Virus record (IMG/VR): IMGVR_UViG_3300020470_001595
Location: 1-60,382 of that record
DNA length: 60,382 bases
Direction: 5' to 3' (one strand)
Source: a virus
Taxonomy: Duplodnaviria > Caudoviricetes
Part shown: positions 17,471 through 60,382 of the stretch, in pieces
Layout of the letters: each line of letters opens with the position of its first letter
Position numbering within the stretch: position 1 is the stretch's first letter
Notes under the pieces: generated by a model
Told to the model about the DNA's origin: nothing
The model's input: the letters and a program-made list of their open reading frames with translations, nothing else
Database searches by the model: none
Position numbers and translations under genes: made by a program

Positions 17471-17878
17471 ATGCATTTACAGGACAGATTGTACAATTTC
17501 ATTATGAATTTCAATCTTAAAAAAGAGAATGAAACTAACATTTATGAATCACCTGATGGTGGCAATACTGTATATGTTAGAAAATCTAATCAAGATCCTA
17601 AATTTAGATCTAGAGTTATTATAAACCATGATGATCCATTTATTGATGAATTAGTATCAAAAGGATATACATTTGATATTGGTAATTCATGGTATCGCAG
17701 AAGATGGTCAACAAATAATGGTTCTGAATCTATTGAAGAAGTTTACCAAATGGTTGAACATGGTGATAATAAATCATGGAAACACTTGATGATTGGGTTC
17801 AATAATGAGGTATTTTATGAAGAACCAGTCGATAAAGTGTCACAACAGAGGGTTGGCAAGGACTTAGACCTGCTATAA
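17471..17878 (+). CDS. Hypothetical protein (IYESPDGG motif)
   Basis: 135-aa ORF; start uncertain. Confidence 0.6.
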   Translation: MHLQDRLYNFIMNFNLKKENETNIYESPDGGNTVYVRKSNQDPKFRSRVIINHDDPFIDELVSKGYTFDIGNSWYRRRWSTNNGSESIEEVYQMVEHGDNKSWKHLMIGFNNEVFYEEPVDKVSQQRVGKDLDLL

Positions 17879-17879
17879 T
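17822..17879 (+). promoter_or_regulatory. Early-type promoter motif copy 3
   Basis: GAACCA-N6-AAAGTGTCAC with TGcTATAAT (17874-17879). Confidence 0.8.
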
Positions 17880-17885
17880 GAGTAT

Positions 17886-17986
17886 GCGAAACAGTCAAGG
17901 GATCACTAAGTTTGAATCTAGTCTGACTTAGAAGCAGACACATGACGATTCAGTAATTGACTTCCCTTAGTCCCTTGATGTTTCGC
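17886..17986 (+). ncRNA. Candidate 101-nt rod-like structured RNA
   Basis: Starts 6 nt after TATAAT; GCGAAACA/TGTTTCGC, TCAAGGGA/TCCCTTGA, CTAAG/CTTAG, TGAATC/GATTCA and GTCTG/CAGAC nested pairings. Confidence 0.65.
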
Positions 17987-18014
17987 TCACCTACACACTT
18001 GCATTTATTATTTT

Positions 18015-18323
18015 ATGCCAACTGCTGCACCTGTTACGAAGAAAGTATCAACAACTCCTCGTAAAAGACGCACTCGTAAAGTAACAACAACTCCTAAAAA
18101 GACTGTTACTAAGGCAACAACGAAGAAATTAAAAAGACCTGCTAAACCAGTTTTGACTCTTAATCATTATAAGAGAGACTTCCAGTCAAGAGTTAAAATT
18201 CATAACTATGAGTTTAACTTATTTGTGGAAGATTGCAAAAAAGGTTATCAATTAGCTAACAAATCTCTTCGTAGTTTCTATGAGTATGCCAGCACTTCTT
18301 ACAAAGCACACTTCAATGTGTGA
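18015..18323 (+). CDS. Basic protein with K/R/T/P-rich N-terminus (possible nucleic-acid binding)
   Basis: TTPRKRRTRKVTTTPKK. Confidence 0.7.
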   Translation: MPTAAPVTKKVSTTPRKRRTRKVTTTPKKTVTKATTKKLKRPAKPVLTLNHYKRDFQSRVKIHNYEFNLFVEDCKKGYQLANKSLRSFYEYASTSYKAHFNV

Positions 18324-18377
18324 CACCTAAAGAACTGACACTCACCCCCTATTCAGGGGGTTTTTTATTGCTATAAT
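18320..18377 (+). promoter_or_regulatory. Early-type promoter motif copy 4
   Basis: GTGACA-N6-GAACTGACAC with TGcTATAAT (18372-18377). Confidence 0.8.
18344..18366 (+). terminator. Intrinsic terminator embedded in promoter copy 4
   Basis: CCCCCT-ATTC-AGGGGG followed by T6. Confidence 0.75.
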
Positions 18378-18383
18378 GAATGT

Positions 18384-18558
18384 GTTGAGGGATATGTGGT
18401 TCCTATGCCCCAGTTCTGGGGGTTCAGGTGTAAGCGATTCCCATAGGTTAAATTTGGACTCTTGGGTGAAACCCATTACAGTTAGTCCCACTCTCTCAAC
18501 TGCTGCATGTCCCTTTGGTGGTTTCAGACATGGAGGCGATAGGAAACCACCATTTTTT
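18384..18558 (+). ncRNA. Candidate ~175-nt structured RNA/leader (branched domain + pseudoknot/terminator)
   Basis: Starts 6 nt after TATAAT; GTTGAGGG/CTCTCAAC, CCTATG/CATAGG, CCCCAG/CTGGGG, GGACT/AGTCC, TGGGT/ACCCA, CATGTC/GACATG, TGGTGGTTTC/GAAACCACCA + T6. Confidence 0.7.
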
Positions 18559-18575
18559 CATTATGAGTAAATTCA

Positions 18576-19007
18576 ATGCCAGTAACTATGTCTTCTAATT
18601 ATAAAGAAGTCTTCAGCAAAGAGACAGTAGAACAAATTGAAGAATTGATAGAATTTGACTATCAACTAAACGAAGTTCTTGACTTTCTTGATACTTATGG
18701 TGAAGATAAAGTAGAATATTTTGAACCATATTCTCAAGCGATTGAGAACATTGGTTGTGATGATGCACAAGAAGTAGTTGATAGGTATGTTGATAGTAAT
18801 GGTATTGAATATGTTGAAGGTTGTGATGAATTGTACCAAGGAAATTATCAATCAGTAGAAGAATTTATTGATGTAATGGAACTAATTGATTATGATATTC
18901 CCTCATGGTTGTGTATAGATTATGAGGCAACATGGGATTCTGCATTGAGATTTGATTATGATAAGATTGATGCACCTTATGGTTATGATTTTTGGAGGAT
19001 TAATTGA
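18576..19007 (+). CDS. ArdA-like acidic antirestriction (DNA-mimic) protein
   Basis: Very acidic; YQGNY...EEF...IPSWL.IDYEATW...FDY resembles the ArdA C-terminal motif. Confidence 0.6.
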   Translation: MPVTMSSNYKEVFSKETVEQIEELIEFDYQLNEVLDFLDTYGEDKVEYFEPYSQAIENIGCDDAQEVVDRYVDSNGIEYVEGCDELYQGNYQSVEEFIDVMELIDYDIPSWLCIDYEATWDSALRFDYDKIDAPYGYDFWRIN

Positions 19008-19294
19008 TGACTAAGTTTTATTATCAAACTTATGATAATGCTAAGTACAATACTATTAATTCACAACGATTGTATAAACAATACCCACCAACATACGAGG
19101 AGACAGAACGAAAATGGAAATTGAAACTATTTAAATCTCGTAAATGTCGTAATGCTAGGAATGTTTGGAAGATTCTACATTGGGATTTACCTCAAGAAGA
19201 ATTTGAAGAATTGCGATATAAAGCAACAACATTCCCTGTAATGTATGATAAATGGGGATTCCGTAGGTCTAATCCATTTGGTGCAATCACCTAA
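19004..19294 (+). CDS. Hypothetical basic protein
   Basis: 96-aa ORF coupled to the upstream gene. Confidence 0.6.
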   Translation: MMTKFYYQTYDNAKYNTINSQRLYKQYPPTYEETERKWKLKLFKSRKCRNARNVWKILHWDLPQEEFEELRYKATTFPVMYDKWGFRRSNPFGAIT

Positions 19295-56649: not shown

Positions 56650-56840
56650 TTCGAGTAGAAGGTAAACCACATCTTTATAGAGATGAAACTGGGGCTATCA
56701 TTAATGATGATAGCTCTGGTTATTCTGCTTATATGAATGCAAAATCTAAAAAAGCACTTGAAAGAAAAGAGCTAGATACTATGAAACAAGAGATCTCTGA
56801 AATAAAGGAGATGCTTGCCAAAATTACATCAAAATTATGA
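56646..56840 (+). CDS. Small coiled-coil protein
   Basis: VEG..HLYRD.TGAIIN followed by a heptad tail. Confidence 0.75.
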   Translation: MIRVEGKPHLYRDETGAIINDDSSGYSAYMNAKSKKALERKELDTMKQEISEIKEMLAKITSKL

Positions 56841-57596: not shown

Positions 57597-60382
57597 TGGC
57601 AGCAACGATTCTGATAAAGAGGACGCAAGGAACCTCTCCTCCAACCGCAGCACCAGTTGGTACTGGTGTATCGTTTGGTGAATTAGTATATACCTACGAT
57701 ACTTCGGATGTAGGTGCTGGTAAGTCGTATAAGAAATTATATATTGGTCATCCAGACGGTAATACAAATCCTCCTATAGCAATCGGTGGTGAATATTACA
57801 CCGATATGCTGCCAGATAACCCTGCAGATTTTGGTAAACCAACTGCATCTAAAGCAGTCATTCTTAACCCCTCAGGGCAAATTGATACCTGGAGTGTAGC
57901 TACTGATCTTTTAGTAGGTGCTGCAGCCACTGTATCAGGTAATCTATCTGTTGCTGGTAATTTAGATGTTACAGGCGATTTAACATATGACGAAGTAAAT
58001 GCAAGAAATTGGAATATAACTGGTGTTGCAACTGCACCAACTCTTAATGTTACTGGAGTATTTGATACTCCTAATCTACAAAACAGAGTAGGTTTAATTA
58101 GTGCTATTGCTGGTGTTGGTGGTACATTTAATGATTGGAATGCCACATCTGCACAGTTTGAACAGGTTAATGTAAGTCATGCTACAACGACTAAGAACTT
58201 AACTATTAGTGGTATCTCAACGATTGAGAACAACTATGATTTCAGAACGCAATTAATAAGAATTGGTAGAGAAGCAGGTAAATTAGAGACTGACGGTACA
58301 GATCGTCAGGGTATGTTTATTGGTAACTGGGCTGGTAATCAGGCTGGTTTAGGAACTCAAACTAAGAGAAACATTGCTATTGGTCAAAGTGCCTTCCAAA
58401 AGGGTGGTGTAACTAAAGCAGAGTCTAATATATTCTTTGGTAATTTTGCAGGACAAGAAGCAGAAGGTTCACATAACATCTATATTGGTGACAAGGTTGG
58501 ACAAGATTTAGGTTCTCAGTCTATTCTCACTTATGGTGAGACTGGTGATGCTAGTACTATTTCATTCTCTGATGGTAGTCAATTAAGCAATGATCCATAT
58601 GCTTACAGAGTATATGGTACTACAGATAATTTCTCCAACATACAGGGTGGTGACTGGGCAATTGCTATTGCTAATCTTGGTGATCTTGGAATCATTAACA
58701 ATGCTGTTACTGGTAACCTATCATTTAACATTGGTACTTGTACTAATGCTTATCTAGCAAAGCTAATTGGTCAACAGTTTACAGTTAAGGGACAGGATAA
58801 CTTTGCGTTATTAACTGATAATAACGATGCTATCTACTTATCCACTGGTACTGTTGGATTAACAGATACTTATGGATTCTTAGTTGTAAGATCAGGTATT
58901 ACAACAAATAGTGGTAAGGAAGATCATGAGCAGAATATTGGTATAGGTAGAGAAGCACTATGGGGTGCTGGTATATCCACTAACCAAAGCAATAACATTG
59001 CTATTGGTGCATTTGCCCTTTACAATGTAATGGGTAGTGATAATGTAGCTATTGGTAATTCTGCTGGTACTCATAATACTGGTAATAATAATGTTATCAT
59101 TGGTAAAGGACAAGATGTTAGATATCCAGATCAAGACGATCAGTTAATAATTGGTTCAGGTGATGTTAAGTGGGTATCTGGTAATAAGGACGGTTGGGTT
59201 GGAATCGGGACCACCACACCAACAGCACTCCTCGATGTGGATGGTGATGTCAACATCACTGGTGTTGCTACTATTCCTCAATTAGATGTTAATAGTCTTG
59301 GTATAGAAGCACTATATGTTACTGCTGGTGTTCAAACATCTTATGTTGGTACTTATTCAACAATAACTGTATTTGATACTGAGACAGCAGATCTAAACGA
59401 TGTTAAGATTACTTCTGGTATCATTACATCTCAAGTTGGTACTTATGCGACAATAACAGTATTTGATACTGAAACCGCAGATCTTAGAGATGTTCAGATC
59501 ACTGCTGGTATCATTACTGACATTGTTGGTACTGCTGCAACTATAACCACATTTGACACAGAGATAGCAGATCTTCAGAGTGTTAAGATTACTACTGGTA
59601 TCATTACCGATATCGTTGGTACTGCTGCTACTATTACTAATGTTGATTTTATCAACACAGATATTGAACAAGCAAAGATTACTGCTGGTATCATTACATC
59701 ACAGGTTGGTACTTATGCAACCATAACAGTATTTGATACTGAAACTGCAGACTTACAAGATGTTAAGATTACTGCTGGTATTATTACATCTCAAGTTGGC
59801 ACTTATGCAACTATAACTGTATTTGATACAGAAACTGCTGACCTTAAAGATGTTAAGGTAACTTCTGGTATCATTACTGATATTGTTGGTACAGCAGCAA
59901 CTATTACAACTATTGATTCTGAAAATGGTGATATTGAATTTGCTAAGATTACTGTTGGTATCATAACTGATATTATCGGTGTTGCTGCTACATTTACTGA
60001 TGTTAATATTACTGCTGACCTTAGAGTTGGTGGTGCAACTACCTTTACTGGTAATGTAACCTTCAATGGAGGTACAATCGGTCTTGGTGATTCTATAACA
60101 GATAATGTTGTATTCAATGCAGACATTGATTCTAACTTTATCCCTGACGATGACGATACTTATGATATTGGTAGTGCTACTCAACAATGGAAAGATATCC
60201 ATATTGACGGTGTTGCTTATGTTGATGACCTAAGTGTTGATTCTACAGTCGGTACTTATGCAACATTCACTACAGCACACATAACAACTCTGAGTGCTGA
60301 TAATCTAAGCTTTACTGGAATTGCTGTTACTGATGTTGTTGGTACTGCAGCAACCATTACAACTATCGATAGCACAGAAGGT
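57596..60382 (+). CDS. Tail fibre protein, truncated at the window end (absent from the ORF track)
   Basis: TAATG coupling; MAATILIKRTQGTSPP...FGELVY N-terminus; NxxIG repeats; fibre-like translation continues to the window end. Confidence 0.85.
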   Translation, partial: MAATILIKRTQGTSPPTAAPVGTGVSFGELVYTYDTSDVGAGKSYKKLYIGHPDGNTNPPIAIGGEYYTDMLPDNPADFGKPTASKAVILNPSGQIDTWSVATDLLVGAAATVSGNLSVAGNLDVTGDLTYDEVNARNWNITGVATAPTLNVTGVFDTPNLQNRVGLISAIAGVGGTFNDWNATSAQFEQVNVSHATTTKNLTISGISTIENNYDFRTQLIRIGREAGKLETDGTDRQGMFIGNWAGNQAGLGTQTKRNIAIGQSAFQKGGVTKAESNIFFGNFAGQEAEGSHNIYIGDKVGQDLGSQSILTYGETGDASTISFSDGSQLSNDPYAYRVYGTTDNFSNIQGGDWAIAIANLGDLGIINNAVTGNLSFNIGTCTNAYLAKLIGQQFTVKGQDNFALLTDNNDAIYLSTGTVGLTDTYGFLVVRSGITTNSGKEDHEQNIGIGREALWGAGISTNQSNNIAIGAFALYNVMGSDNVAIGNSAGTHNTGNNNVIIGKGQDVRYPDQDDQLIIGSGDVKWVSGNKDGWVGIGTTTPTALLDVDGDVNITGVATIPQLDVNSLGIEALYVTAGVQTSYVGTYSTITVFDTETADLNDVKITSGIITSQVGTYATITVFDTETADLRDVQITAGIITDIVGTAATITTFDTEIADLQSVKITTGIITDIVGTAATITNVDFINTDIEQAKITAGIITSQVGTYATITVFDTETADLQDVKITAGIITSQVGTYATITVFDTETADLKDVKVTSGIITDIVGTAATITTIDSENGDIEFAKITVGIITDIIGVAATFTDVNITADLRVGGATTFTGNVTFNGGTIGLGDSITDNVVFNADIDSNFIPDDDDTYDIGSATQQWKDIHIDGVAYVDDLSVDSTVGTYATFTTAHITTLSADNLSFTGIAVTDVVGTAATITTIDSTEG
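59311..60030 (+). repeat. 90-bp (30-aa) tandem repeat, about 8 copies
   Basis: Unit DVKITxGIITxxVGTxATITxFDTExADL; equivalent positions at 59401, 59491, 59581, 59671, 59761, 59851, 59941. Confidence 0.9.

Follow-up and report, generated by a model that had tools for sequence, protein, structure and literature searches.

Genomic setting of the leader

The window analysed here is a stretch of 60,382 nt from a virus of the Caudoviricetes (IMG/VR record IMGVR_UViG_3300020470_001595, positions 1 to 60,382), whose genes resemble those of the T4-like cyanomyoviruses P-SSM2, P-SSM4, P-RSM4 and S-TIM4 and whose viral record is rated 28% complete by CheckV. The element under study lies on the plus strand at 18384-18558, ahead of a gene for an acidic, anti-restriction-like (ArdA-like) protein, and very probably is a real, modular and uncatalogued leader RNA, made up of the module D1 followed by the module D2. 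The flagged stretch forms a G+C island, with a GC content of 0.45-0.49 against about 0.31 in the surroundings. The coordinates of all features are shown in Table 1.

Table 1. Features of the leader and its immediate neighbours (positions of the window; R1 and R2 are the models of D1 and D2)
Feature	Position	Strand	Basis or remark
Intrinsic terminator of upstream gene, open reading frame (ORF) 18015-18323	18344..18367	+	Terminator scan: hairpin 18344-18361, 7 pairs, 5 G-C, then T-run
Extended -10 promoter TGCTATAAT (predicted)	18369..18377	+	Sequence; promoter scan
D1, three-way-junction RNA, 115 nt	18385..18499	+	Alignment, pair counts; model R1
D1 P1, 8 bp	18385-92/18492-99	+	Closing stem; covariation alignment
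D1 P1b, 3 bp	18396-98/18489-91	+	Closing stem, with P1
D1 P2, 6 pairs	18402-07/18442-47	+	Stacked on P3 hairpin
D1 P3 hairpin, expansion site	18408-12/18417-21	+	
D1 near-invariant 20-nt bulge, 3' side	18422-18441	+	
D1 J2/4 junction	18448-55	+	UUAAAUUU in window, GUAAAUUU in most relatives
D1 P4	18456-59/18485-88	+	Encloses P5
D1 P5 hairpin GGGUGAAACCC; invariant part GGUGAAACC	18463-67/18471-75	+	
D2, H-type pseudoknot, 53 nt	18500..18552	+	Alignment with pseudoknot brackets; model R2, 80 bits
D2 stem a	18503-11/18527-35	+	G.G at 18505/18533; includes CAUGUC/GACAUG 18506-11/18527-32
D2 stem b UGGUGGUUUC/GAAACCACCA	18516-25/18543-52	+	Loop-to-tail pairing
D2 loops	L1 18512-15; L2 A18526; L3 GCGAUAG 18536-42	+	
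U6 run, directly 3' of stem b	18553..18558	+	Sequence
Downstream gene, 143 amino acids, acidic, anti-restriction-like	18576..19007	+	PHROG 36653 'anti-restriction protein', E = 2.8e-18

An earlier note on this DNA had described a promoter-headed structured RNA insulated upstream by its own terminator, and this description was borne out: the terminator scan returned a hairpin with a T-run behind the upstream gene, the predicted extended -10 element comes next, the RNA that follows shows covariation, and the elements listed in that note were recovered at the positions it gave. Judged from the position of the predicted -10 element, transcription would start at about 18384. The early region as a whole is a series of such terminator/promoter cassettes.

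In the test for membership in the ArdA family, ORF 18576-19007 matched PHROG 36653, and zero Pfam families were found at E <= 0.01. No second promoter lies within the 17 nt between U6 and the ATG, so this ORF appears to be served by the leader's own promoter. No tRNA or transfer-messenger RNA (tmRNA) gene was found in the window by ARAGORN.

Covariation of the three-way-junction module D1

The D1 alignment comprised 30 of the 31 distinct relatives with a short P3; the copy omitted, from contig L021, is identical to that of P-SSM2 over the modelled 118 nt. Across the six helices, 96.7% of the cells were paired and compensatory changes were observed in 17 of the 32 pairs, which agrees with the closed branched fold that had been proposed for this domain. 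None of 500 shuffles was as good, and sliding the partners by 1-3 columns left only 34-54% of the cells paired. The clearest helix is P2, in which five of the six pairs vary, solely by double changes and with zero broken cells. In a scan with a second anchor, 32 new loci were obtained, comprising 22 real D1 copies and 10 chance matches in coding DNA; in the real copies the core varies slightly (GGUACAGG, GGUGCAGG and GUGCAAG), and a C-G to G-C exchange is also seen at the first pair of P2. Model R1 found one copy in the window (115.6 bits, E = 8.8e-30).

Single-sequence folding gave z scores of -1.55 for the plus strand, which 12 of 200 shuffles equalled, and of -0.68 for the minus strand, so that the region does not stand out by thermodynamics alone. 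The minimum free energy fold was correct for the P3 and P5 hairpins only, with P1, P2 and P4 mis-paired; the D1 helices given here are those supported by covariation.

Between the 5' anchor and the core lie 25 to 241 nt (anchor located in 105 of 127 instances), which marks P3 as an expansion site accepting inserts of up to about 215 nt. In the relatives, these inserts are themselves recurring modules.

Two modules were observed alongside D1. A module of about 50 nt, GGAUCUAUGGUUGUCUC..GAGAAAUUACGUCCUGUAAGUCC, is the P3 insert of D1 in some contigs and stands free downstream of D1 in others (L006 2440-2495; L005 2617-2670; L007 2594-2650), so that modules nest in each other's loops. In addition, a conserved fold, GUGGUAUGACUUAGUACCUGU ... 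CAGGUGAAGCACCUCUUGAGCAUACCAC, occurs right after D1 in P-SSM2 (L001 2619-2710) and in several contigs (L005 2580-2710); its middle is variable or bears inserts, and it has an AGGUG(U)AAGC string in common with the invariant bulge of D1.

Covariation of the pseudoknot module D2

For D2, 53 distinct sequences were compared. Compensatory changes were observed in six of the nine pairs of stem a and in four of nine pairs of stem b, where 99.6% of the cells were paired; overall, 95.0% of the cells were paired and 10 of 18 pairs were compensatory, with 24-51% paired in the slid controls and none of 500 shuffles reaching the covariation score. In one relative (L214), stem b is wholly different in sequence with pairing retained throughout. 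By the covariation of both stems D2 is an H-type pseudoknot, as had been predicted for the second domain; the simultaneous formation of the two stems is a model, in which the connecting loops of 4, 1 and 7 nt would be tight for stems of 9 and 10 bp. A single D2 copy was found in the window with model R2. A tRNA-like 3' ACCA was also considered for D2 and rejected: it becomes AUCA or ACUA together with its pairing partner, indicating that the pairing is selected and not the CCA.

Stem b had also been read as a terminator stem in front of U6. The U6 run is indeed present in the window, but a T-run within 3 nt after D2 was found in only 10 of 91 relatives and was absent from the other 81, so that a conserved role in termination could not be upheld. 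The terminator scan does not call stem b with U6, the loop being 17 nt long. In the window, U6 may be terminator-like or may be the start of an A/U-rich linker to the start codon, and termination at stem b would be a local trait at most.

The region is also spanned in the window by ORF 18376-18570 (64 amino acids), and the conservation might in principle be due to this small protein, or to a DNA-level recombination cassette shuffled between genomes like the PeSL (promoter-early stem-loop) elements of phages treated in excerpts of PMC4122927, with no role for the RNA fold. However, the frame is open for at least 180 nt in 13 of 114 distinct relatives (median 78 nt), the D1 alignment contains indels of 1, 2 and 4 nt, and the ORF matches no Pfam or PHROG family. 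By this comparison of relatives coding by ORF 18376-18570 is excluded, and the view of the earlier note that the region works as RNA and not as a translated frame is retained. The compensatory double changes in 27 base pairs of the two modules point to selection on a folded strand and not on a recombination site, which leaves an explanation by protein or DNA alone barely credible.

Modularity and genomic context of D1 and D2

The genomic contexts show that D1 and D2 are independent, mobile modules. The D1 core lies within 140 nt upstream of D2 in 30 of 109 distinct D2 contexts, and D2 occurs without D1 in the other 79. Among 101 D1 contexts, D2 follows directly in 26, a T-run in 13 (within 4 nt of P1, in P-SSM2 and 12 others) and something else in 62, D2 being absent from 75. 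D2 precedes unrelated genes and tRNA genes, and in locus L051 the D1+D2 leader stands directly before a homologue of window ORF 19004-19294, with the ArdA-like gene absent; the proposed tie of the RNA to the ArdA-like gene was not confirmed.

D2 is usually preceded, in this order, by a terminator hairpin with its T-run, an extended -10 promoter, a gap of about 7 nt and a small hairpin (GUUGAG...CUCAAC, GUCA...UGAC or GCCAG...CUGGC), to which D2 is joined without a spacer. In minimal leaders the small hairpin has a loop of 4-10 nt and is the same helix as P1 of D1, while in the window its loop contains all of D1. Because the small hairpin is P1, the most fitting description of D1 is that of a module inserted into the 5' hairpin of a D2-type leader.

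An extended -10 promoter was found within 450 nt upstream in 76 of 91 distinct D2 contexts and ends 21-37 nt before D2 in 40; a T-run lies within 12 nt before the promoter in 43 of the 76, giving the terminator/promoter order of the window. Of 118 distinct D1 contexts, 59 show a -10-like hexamer that stops about 7 nt short of P1, and in 40 of these a TG lies one base upstream of the hexamer. The remaining D1 5' contexts fall into 23 with a second motif and 36 others, in which other modules often precede D1. The second motif, ..ACG..TAAA-s-TG-y.., lies about 22 nt before the GGUU of D1 (for example in L014, L017, L091 and L096), at a fixed distance in 23 of 23, and may be a second, non-sigma-70 promoter type for D1.

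An ORF of at least 45 amino acids begins 10-39 nt after D2 in 56 of 93 contexts, with a linker of 71% A+T, and 60-299 nt after D2 in 28, mostly past further modules. In four loci (L168, L185, L197 and L245) a tRNA gene begins 2-6 nt after D2, and in Synechococcus phage RB11-B D2 lies between an hli gene and a tRNA array; no tRNA gene was found near D1 in the 120 loci fetched with the D1 core. On the minus strand of the IMG/VR phage contig L185 (729-2887), nine tRNA genes were observed together with a permuted tmRNA of the cyanobacterial type (RF01851, 146 bits; tag peptide ANNIVSFRRTAVAV by ARAGORN); between tRNA-Ser and tRNA-Pro stands a D2 that has a promoter of its own.

The proteins encoded downstream of the modules belong to many unrelated families with no common function. 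In the search for a partner protein, 2,866 ORFs within 3 kb of 140 instances were clustered, and broad synteny only was found, with no accompanying family; a DNA methyltransferase was present in 53/140 and a helicase in 42/140. The real genes next to the RNA all share one strand. Two further neighbour 'families' were rejected as frames read through the RNA itself.

A position immediately downstream of early-type promoters would also suit a promoter-proximal antitermination or elongation-control RNA that acts on the polymerase in the manner of HK022 put or lambda nut, allowing an early operon to be read through internal terminators. The early region is indeed made of terminator/promoter cassettes, the placement before mRNAs and tRNA genes alike fits an action on transcription rather than on translation, and the copy number of the modules, given below, is that of put and nut. 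However, no sequence or structural likeness to any catalogued element was found, many D2 copies head one short gene and some genomes have no copy, and an antitermination role is considered improbable.

Analysis of the proposed switch

According to the earlier note, 18396-18406 can alternatively pair with 18539-18550, and such mutually exclusive pairings would form a switch. This alternative helix is possible in the window, with 11 of 11 pairs, but is not kept in the relatives: among 16 distinct D1+D2 combinations it is complete in four, which share the window's P2 sequence, lacks one of its 11 pairs in another and is reduced to 7-9 pairs in the remaining 11 combinations. The helix uses the 5' strand of P2, which is fully paired in 16 of 16 combinations, and its D2 side (AUAGG) never changes to track P2. 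Non-conservation of the alternative helix had been named beforehand as evidence against the switch, and non-conservation is what was observed.

A switch with D1 as its sensor, either riboswitch or attenuator, whose mutually exclusive pairings would set a D2 terminator and so control the ArdA-like gene, would explain the aptamer-grade conservation of D1, its three-way junction with an invariant internal bulge, and, in the window, the perfect alternative helix, the U6 after stem b and a gene without its own promoter. It is nevertheless very improbable, since the alternative helix is incomplete in most combinations while P2 is intact in all, the U-tract after D2 is rare, the modules are mostly apart, the downstream genes are functionally mixed and include tRNAs, and no Rfam riboswitch was matched. 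The first four of these reasons leave a conserved attenuator dedicated to the ArdA-like gene without a basis. Binding of a ligand or partner by D1 would be compatible with these results.

Distribution and copy number

Exact matches to the 21-nt D1 core (18421-18441) were found in at least 119 IMG/VR viral contigs, and matches to a D2-specific pattern also in at least 119 viral contigs. By blastn, D1 is 79-84% identical to unannotated intergenic DNA of P-SSM2, P-SSM5 and five 'Marine virus AG-345' single-cell records, where the flanking genes differ from those of the window. Across 100 sources, model R1 gave 99 matches. Five larger records, among them the whole genome of P-SSM2 (D1 at 56,700-56,817) and a record of 202 kb with a completeness rating of 100%, contained one copy apiece; contig L021 has two D1 copies. 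In the R1 and R2 searches of records, the copy number of D1 and D2 was 0-1 per genome.

In P-SSM2, model R2 placed D2 at 144,051-144,103, before PSSM2_175 and about 87 kb from D1, and it found no D2 in three other records searched. D2 is 96% identical in AG-345-E08, with unrelated flanks. A blastn search of D2 against phage records gave one matching record; the shortness and variability of the module defeat BLAST.

Among 185,579 prokaryote species, each represented by a single genome, zero exact matches to the D1 21-mer were found on either strand. The D2 pattern gave 14 matches in prokaryote genomes against about 11 expected by chance (our own estimate), of which 13 score no more than 20 bits with R2 and one scores 80.8 bits. 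The latter lies on an 8-kb contig (JAYZHR010000288.1, locus L263) from a Verrucomicrobiota bin. The remaining matches of this contig are to Synechococcus phages, including structural genes of S-WAM2, and it is probably cyanophage DNA mis-binned into a bacterial metagenome-assembled genome. The 67-nt stretch that contains this D2 is 86-87% identical to the cultured Synechococcus phages RB11-B (the one inspected), S-H68, S-B05 and S-B43. Within the collections searched, D1 and D2 occur in phage DNA only. The modules are present in cultured phages, P-SSM2 having both, which makes experiments directly feasible.

Comparison with RNA families and metatranscriptomes

The earlier note had suggested a cmscan against Rfam, and this gave no family match. 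With Rfam 15, 0 matches at the gathering threshold were obtained in the whole window and 0 on the P-SSM2 homologue; at E <= 10, the region 18300-18620 gave only weak, terminator-like hits (SpF51, NsiR1 and DicF), all far below threshold. As a positive control, manA, tRNAs and tmRNA were detected in related loci. No description of the D1 or D2 folds was found in the literature, where unnamed entries are possible in the supplementary tables of the viral RNA catalogue PMC10690425; according to excerpts of that paper, the catalogue holds more than 10,000 candidate viral structured RNAs and was built from IMG/VR.

Four marine metatranscriptome runs were considered, and cover was found in three, from three studies, in assembled contigs of relatives from which no ends or strand can be read. 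The word depth over the D1 core (18417-18457) was 116, 73 and 31 in these three, a weak hint of expression that may be inflated by the pooling of many strains in a conserved core and to which DNA carry-over may contribute; the depth over D2 was 38, 5 and 0, and that over the flanking ORFs at most 6. The ArdA-like gene had zero cover, to which no weight is given. Two RNA contigs from two runs end at 18514, which is the boundary between conserved sequence and a variable stem and thus a typical assembly break. A contig joint 17945>18386 was rejected as splicing and represents a different module order in a relative.

The contig ends at 18514 bear on the suggestion that D1, or D1 with D2, is a self-cleaving ribozyme or an RNA-processing recognition structure that would cut the early transcript at a defined site, and as an assembly break they lend it no support. 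Such a role would agree with the many invariant unpaired positions round a multi-helix junction, with the large inserts taken up by P3 and with the varied gene contexts in phage DNA, which are said to be typical of small ribozymes. However, no Rfam 15 ribozyme family was matched even at E <= 10, and this role is hardly probable.

The RNA-derived contigs are also relevant to a free, trans-acting small RNA (sRNA) of about 85-180 nt, which would bind a host or phage protein or RNA by its invariant loops and would leave the downstream genes to read-through. Its end would be formed by stem b with U6 in the window, by P1 with a U-run in P-SSM2, or by RNase P release before a tRNA. The window indeed contains a discrete unit of about 170 nt from promoter to U-tract, a T-run close to P1 recurs in P-SSM2 and the 12 other D1 contexts, and the 2-6 nt gap to a tRNA implies that RNase P would free the leader; the very high loop conservation, the single copy per genome and the high depth over the D1 core, weak as the latter evidence is, are in line with an sRNA as well. 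However, most relatives have no terminator after the modules (81 of 91 for D2; 62 of 101 D1 contexts with neither D2 nor a T-run), no target, partner protein or accompanying gene family turned up beyond broad synteny, and no exact complement of the 21-nt core was present in the 185,579 prokaryote genomes. An sRNA is therefore regarded as possible but rather unlikely.

Further observations in the window

A second perfect extended -10 promoter TGCTATAAT was observed at 17871-17879, overlapping the end of ORF 17471-17878. It heads a different structured leader ahead of ORF 18015-18323 (region 17871-18014), with the hairpin GUCUG-ACUUAGAAG-CAGAC (about 17921-17939) followed by ACAUGA. When rows with complementary stems alone were taken, the 9-nt loop ACUUAGAAG was framed by at least seven different complementary stems in relatives, and this module is also inserted in P3 of D1.

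As a by-product of the promoter scan, TGGTATCAT sites were found every 90 bases at 59416-59976 of the window. They point to a 90-nt (30-amino-acid) tandem repeat in a large ORF at the window end, which probably encodes a fibre-like protein.

Interpretation of the leader

We read 18385-18552 as the 5' leader with which an early transcription unit of a T4-like cyanomyovirus begins, carrying two RNA modules conserved across phages. The basic unit, which recurs in many relatives, consists of a terminator/extended -10 cassette, a P1 hairpin starting within a few bases of +1 and D2 directly after it, and leads to a start codon 10-39 nt past D2 or to a tRNA gene 2-6 nt past D2. The P1 loop of the window holds an inserted D1, whose P3 hairpin is a further insertion site in relatives. 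We infer that the leader is produced constitutively, as part of the early message, and that it functions as RNA without switching in response to a ligand. With its paired 5' end and its compact pseudoknot, it would keep RNase E and RNase J from degrading the transcript from the 5' end, while the invariant loops would be tertiary contacts or a protein-binding site. In the window, some of the transcripts may also stop at stem b with U6, which would release an RNA of about 170 nt. Taken as a whole, mechanism included, this account has an even chance of being correct.

Among the mechanisms, protection of the transcript would be the likeliest, and it is put forward tentatively, by analogy. Terminal stem-loops at the 5' end protect bacterial mRNAs from 5'-end-dependent decay, as in the ompA leader of E. 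coli and in RNase J substrates of Bacillus. Different folds replace each other at different promoters, as at 17871-17879, which a protective role would allow.

Several points weigh against this interpretation. The approximately 56 invariant D1 positions and the invariant D2 loops are more than simple protection needs, and such conservation points to a specific partner or chemistry; at the same time, the relatives were collected with exact sequence anchors, so that the invariance of the D1 core positions arises by construction, and the search pattern itself dictated D2 columns 29-35 and 44-55, whose invariance therefore carries no weight. A leader placed before tRNA genes would bring little gain from mRNA stabilisation. 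From a general expression device one would expect more than 0-1 copies per genome, although other early promoters in the window carry other folds. The read depth over D1 carries the possible inflation described above, and the protective role itself is one that we infer from analogy with bacterial leaders.

A bolder and doubtful version of the protective account can also be framed by analogy: the 5' hairpin with D2 would be a nuclease-blocking RNA of a DNA phage that halts cyanobacterial RNase J or 5'-end-dependent RNase E, and D1 would be a plug-in module with its own partner, be it a ligand, a protein or a catalytic role. If true, this would provide a bacterial-world counterpart of the exoribonuclease-resistant RNAs (xrRNAs) of eukaryotic RNA viruses, placed ahead of early messages and tRNA precursors.

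Few viruses of the ocean are more abundant than the marine cyanomyoviruses, whose early gene expression is little understood. The leader described here adds two folds of riboswitch-grade conservation, phage-confined and outside Rfam 15, which are nestable, interchangeable parts on early promoters. If they are protective or recruit a factor, they would represent a general phage take-over device and a ready-made part for cyanobacterial gene expression; if D1 binds a ligand or cleaves RNA, it would represent a new functional RNA class.

Comparison with known systems

Weinberg and colleagues are said to have described, in 2010, the cyanophage RNA motifs manA, wcaG, PhotoRC-II and the glutamine riboswitch. 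Excerpts of PMC9602691 summarise manA (RF01745), wcaG (RF01761), PhotoRC-II and glutamine-riboswitch motifs of T4-like cyanophages. These motifs are the closest in kind to D1 and D2, all being structured RNAs that were defined by covariation and lie in 5' untranslated regions of genes of marine cyanomyoviruses, most without a tested function, but there is no homology, as cmscan found none of them in the window. Motifs of the manA type are each tied to particular gene classes, whereas D1 and D2 are not tied and nest. In P-SSM2, manA (181.6 bits) was observed at 142,837-143,034 (locus L256), between regA and a gene annotated as purL and about 1 kb upstream of a D2-type leader, so that one region of this genome holds catalogued and uncatalogued leaders.

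The PeSL cassettes of T4-type phages were reportedly described by Arbiol and colleagues in 2010. According to excerpts of Comeau et al. 2014 (PMC4122927), they consist of a terminator hairpin with an early promoter of the sigma-70 type directly behind it; they are found between the small, variable genes of the early region and are shuffled among related genomes. The same order was found in the window, where the terminator hairpin at 18344-61 and its T-run precede the predicted promoter TGCTATAAT at 18369-77 (18344-18377 in all), and in the 43 of 76 promoter-bearing D2 relatives mentioned above. PeSLs are described as DNA-level terminator/promoter motifs in the excerpts of PMC4122927, which make no mention of cyanophages, while here an extra 70-400 nt of RNA with covarying helices is present.

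Coremin (xrRNA-C), as defined in excerpts of PMC6546385 and PMC10520033, consists of two hairpins joined by a conserved spacer of 10 nt, the first hairpin having 3-5 bp and a YGAD or YGNNAD loop, and excerpts of PMC11702639 describe plant-virus xrRNAs of a hairpin/3'-tail pseudoknot type. D1 and D2 have in common with viral xrRNAs that they are compact folds upstream of RNA to be preserved, and D2 shares the topology of an apical loop paired with a 3' tail. The 7-nt string AAACUAC occurs in D2 relatives and in the coremin sequence printed in PMC10520033; the window reads AAACCAC, which covaries in stem b. Identity with coremin was rejected by inspection against the published definition, as no hairpin-spacer-hairpin unit is present in D1 or D2 and D2 has a 9-bp stem with a 15-nt loop. 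By analogy, the relevant nuclease for the D1/D2 leader would be RNase J or RNase E, Xrn1 not being the enzyme.

Structured RNAs that head early phage transcripts in one or two copies per genome include HK022 put, lambda nut and the leader pseudoknot of T4 gene 32. In gene 32, the 5' pseudoknot is followed by an A/U-rich linker and the start codon. The T4 gene 32 pseudoknot is also mentioned in excerpts of PMC10690425. D2 has no sequence relation to put, nut or the gene 32 element, and while the gene 32 element is tied to one gene, D2 precedes many genes and tRNAs.

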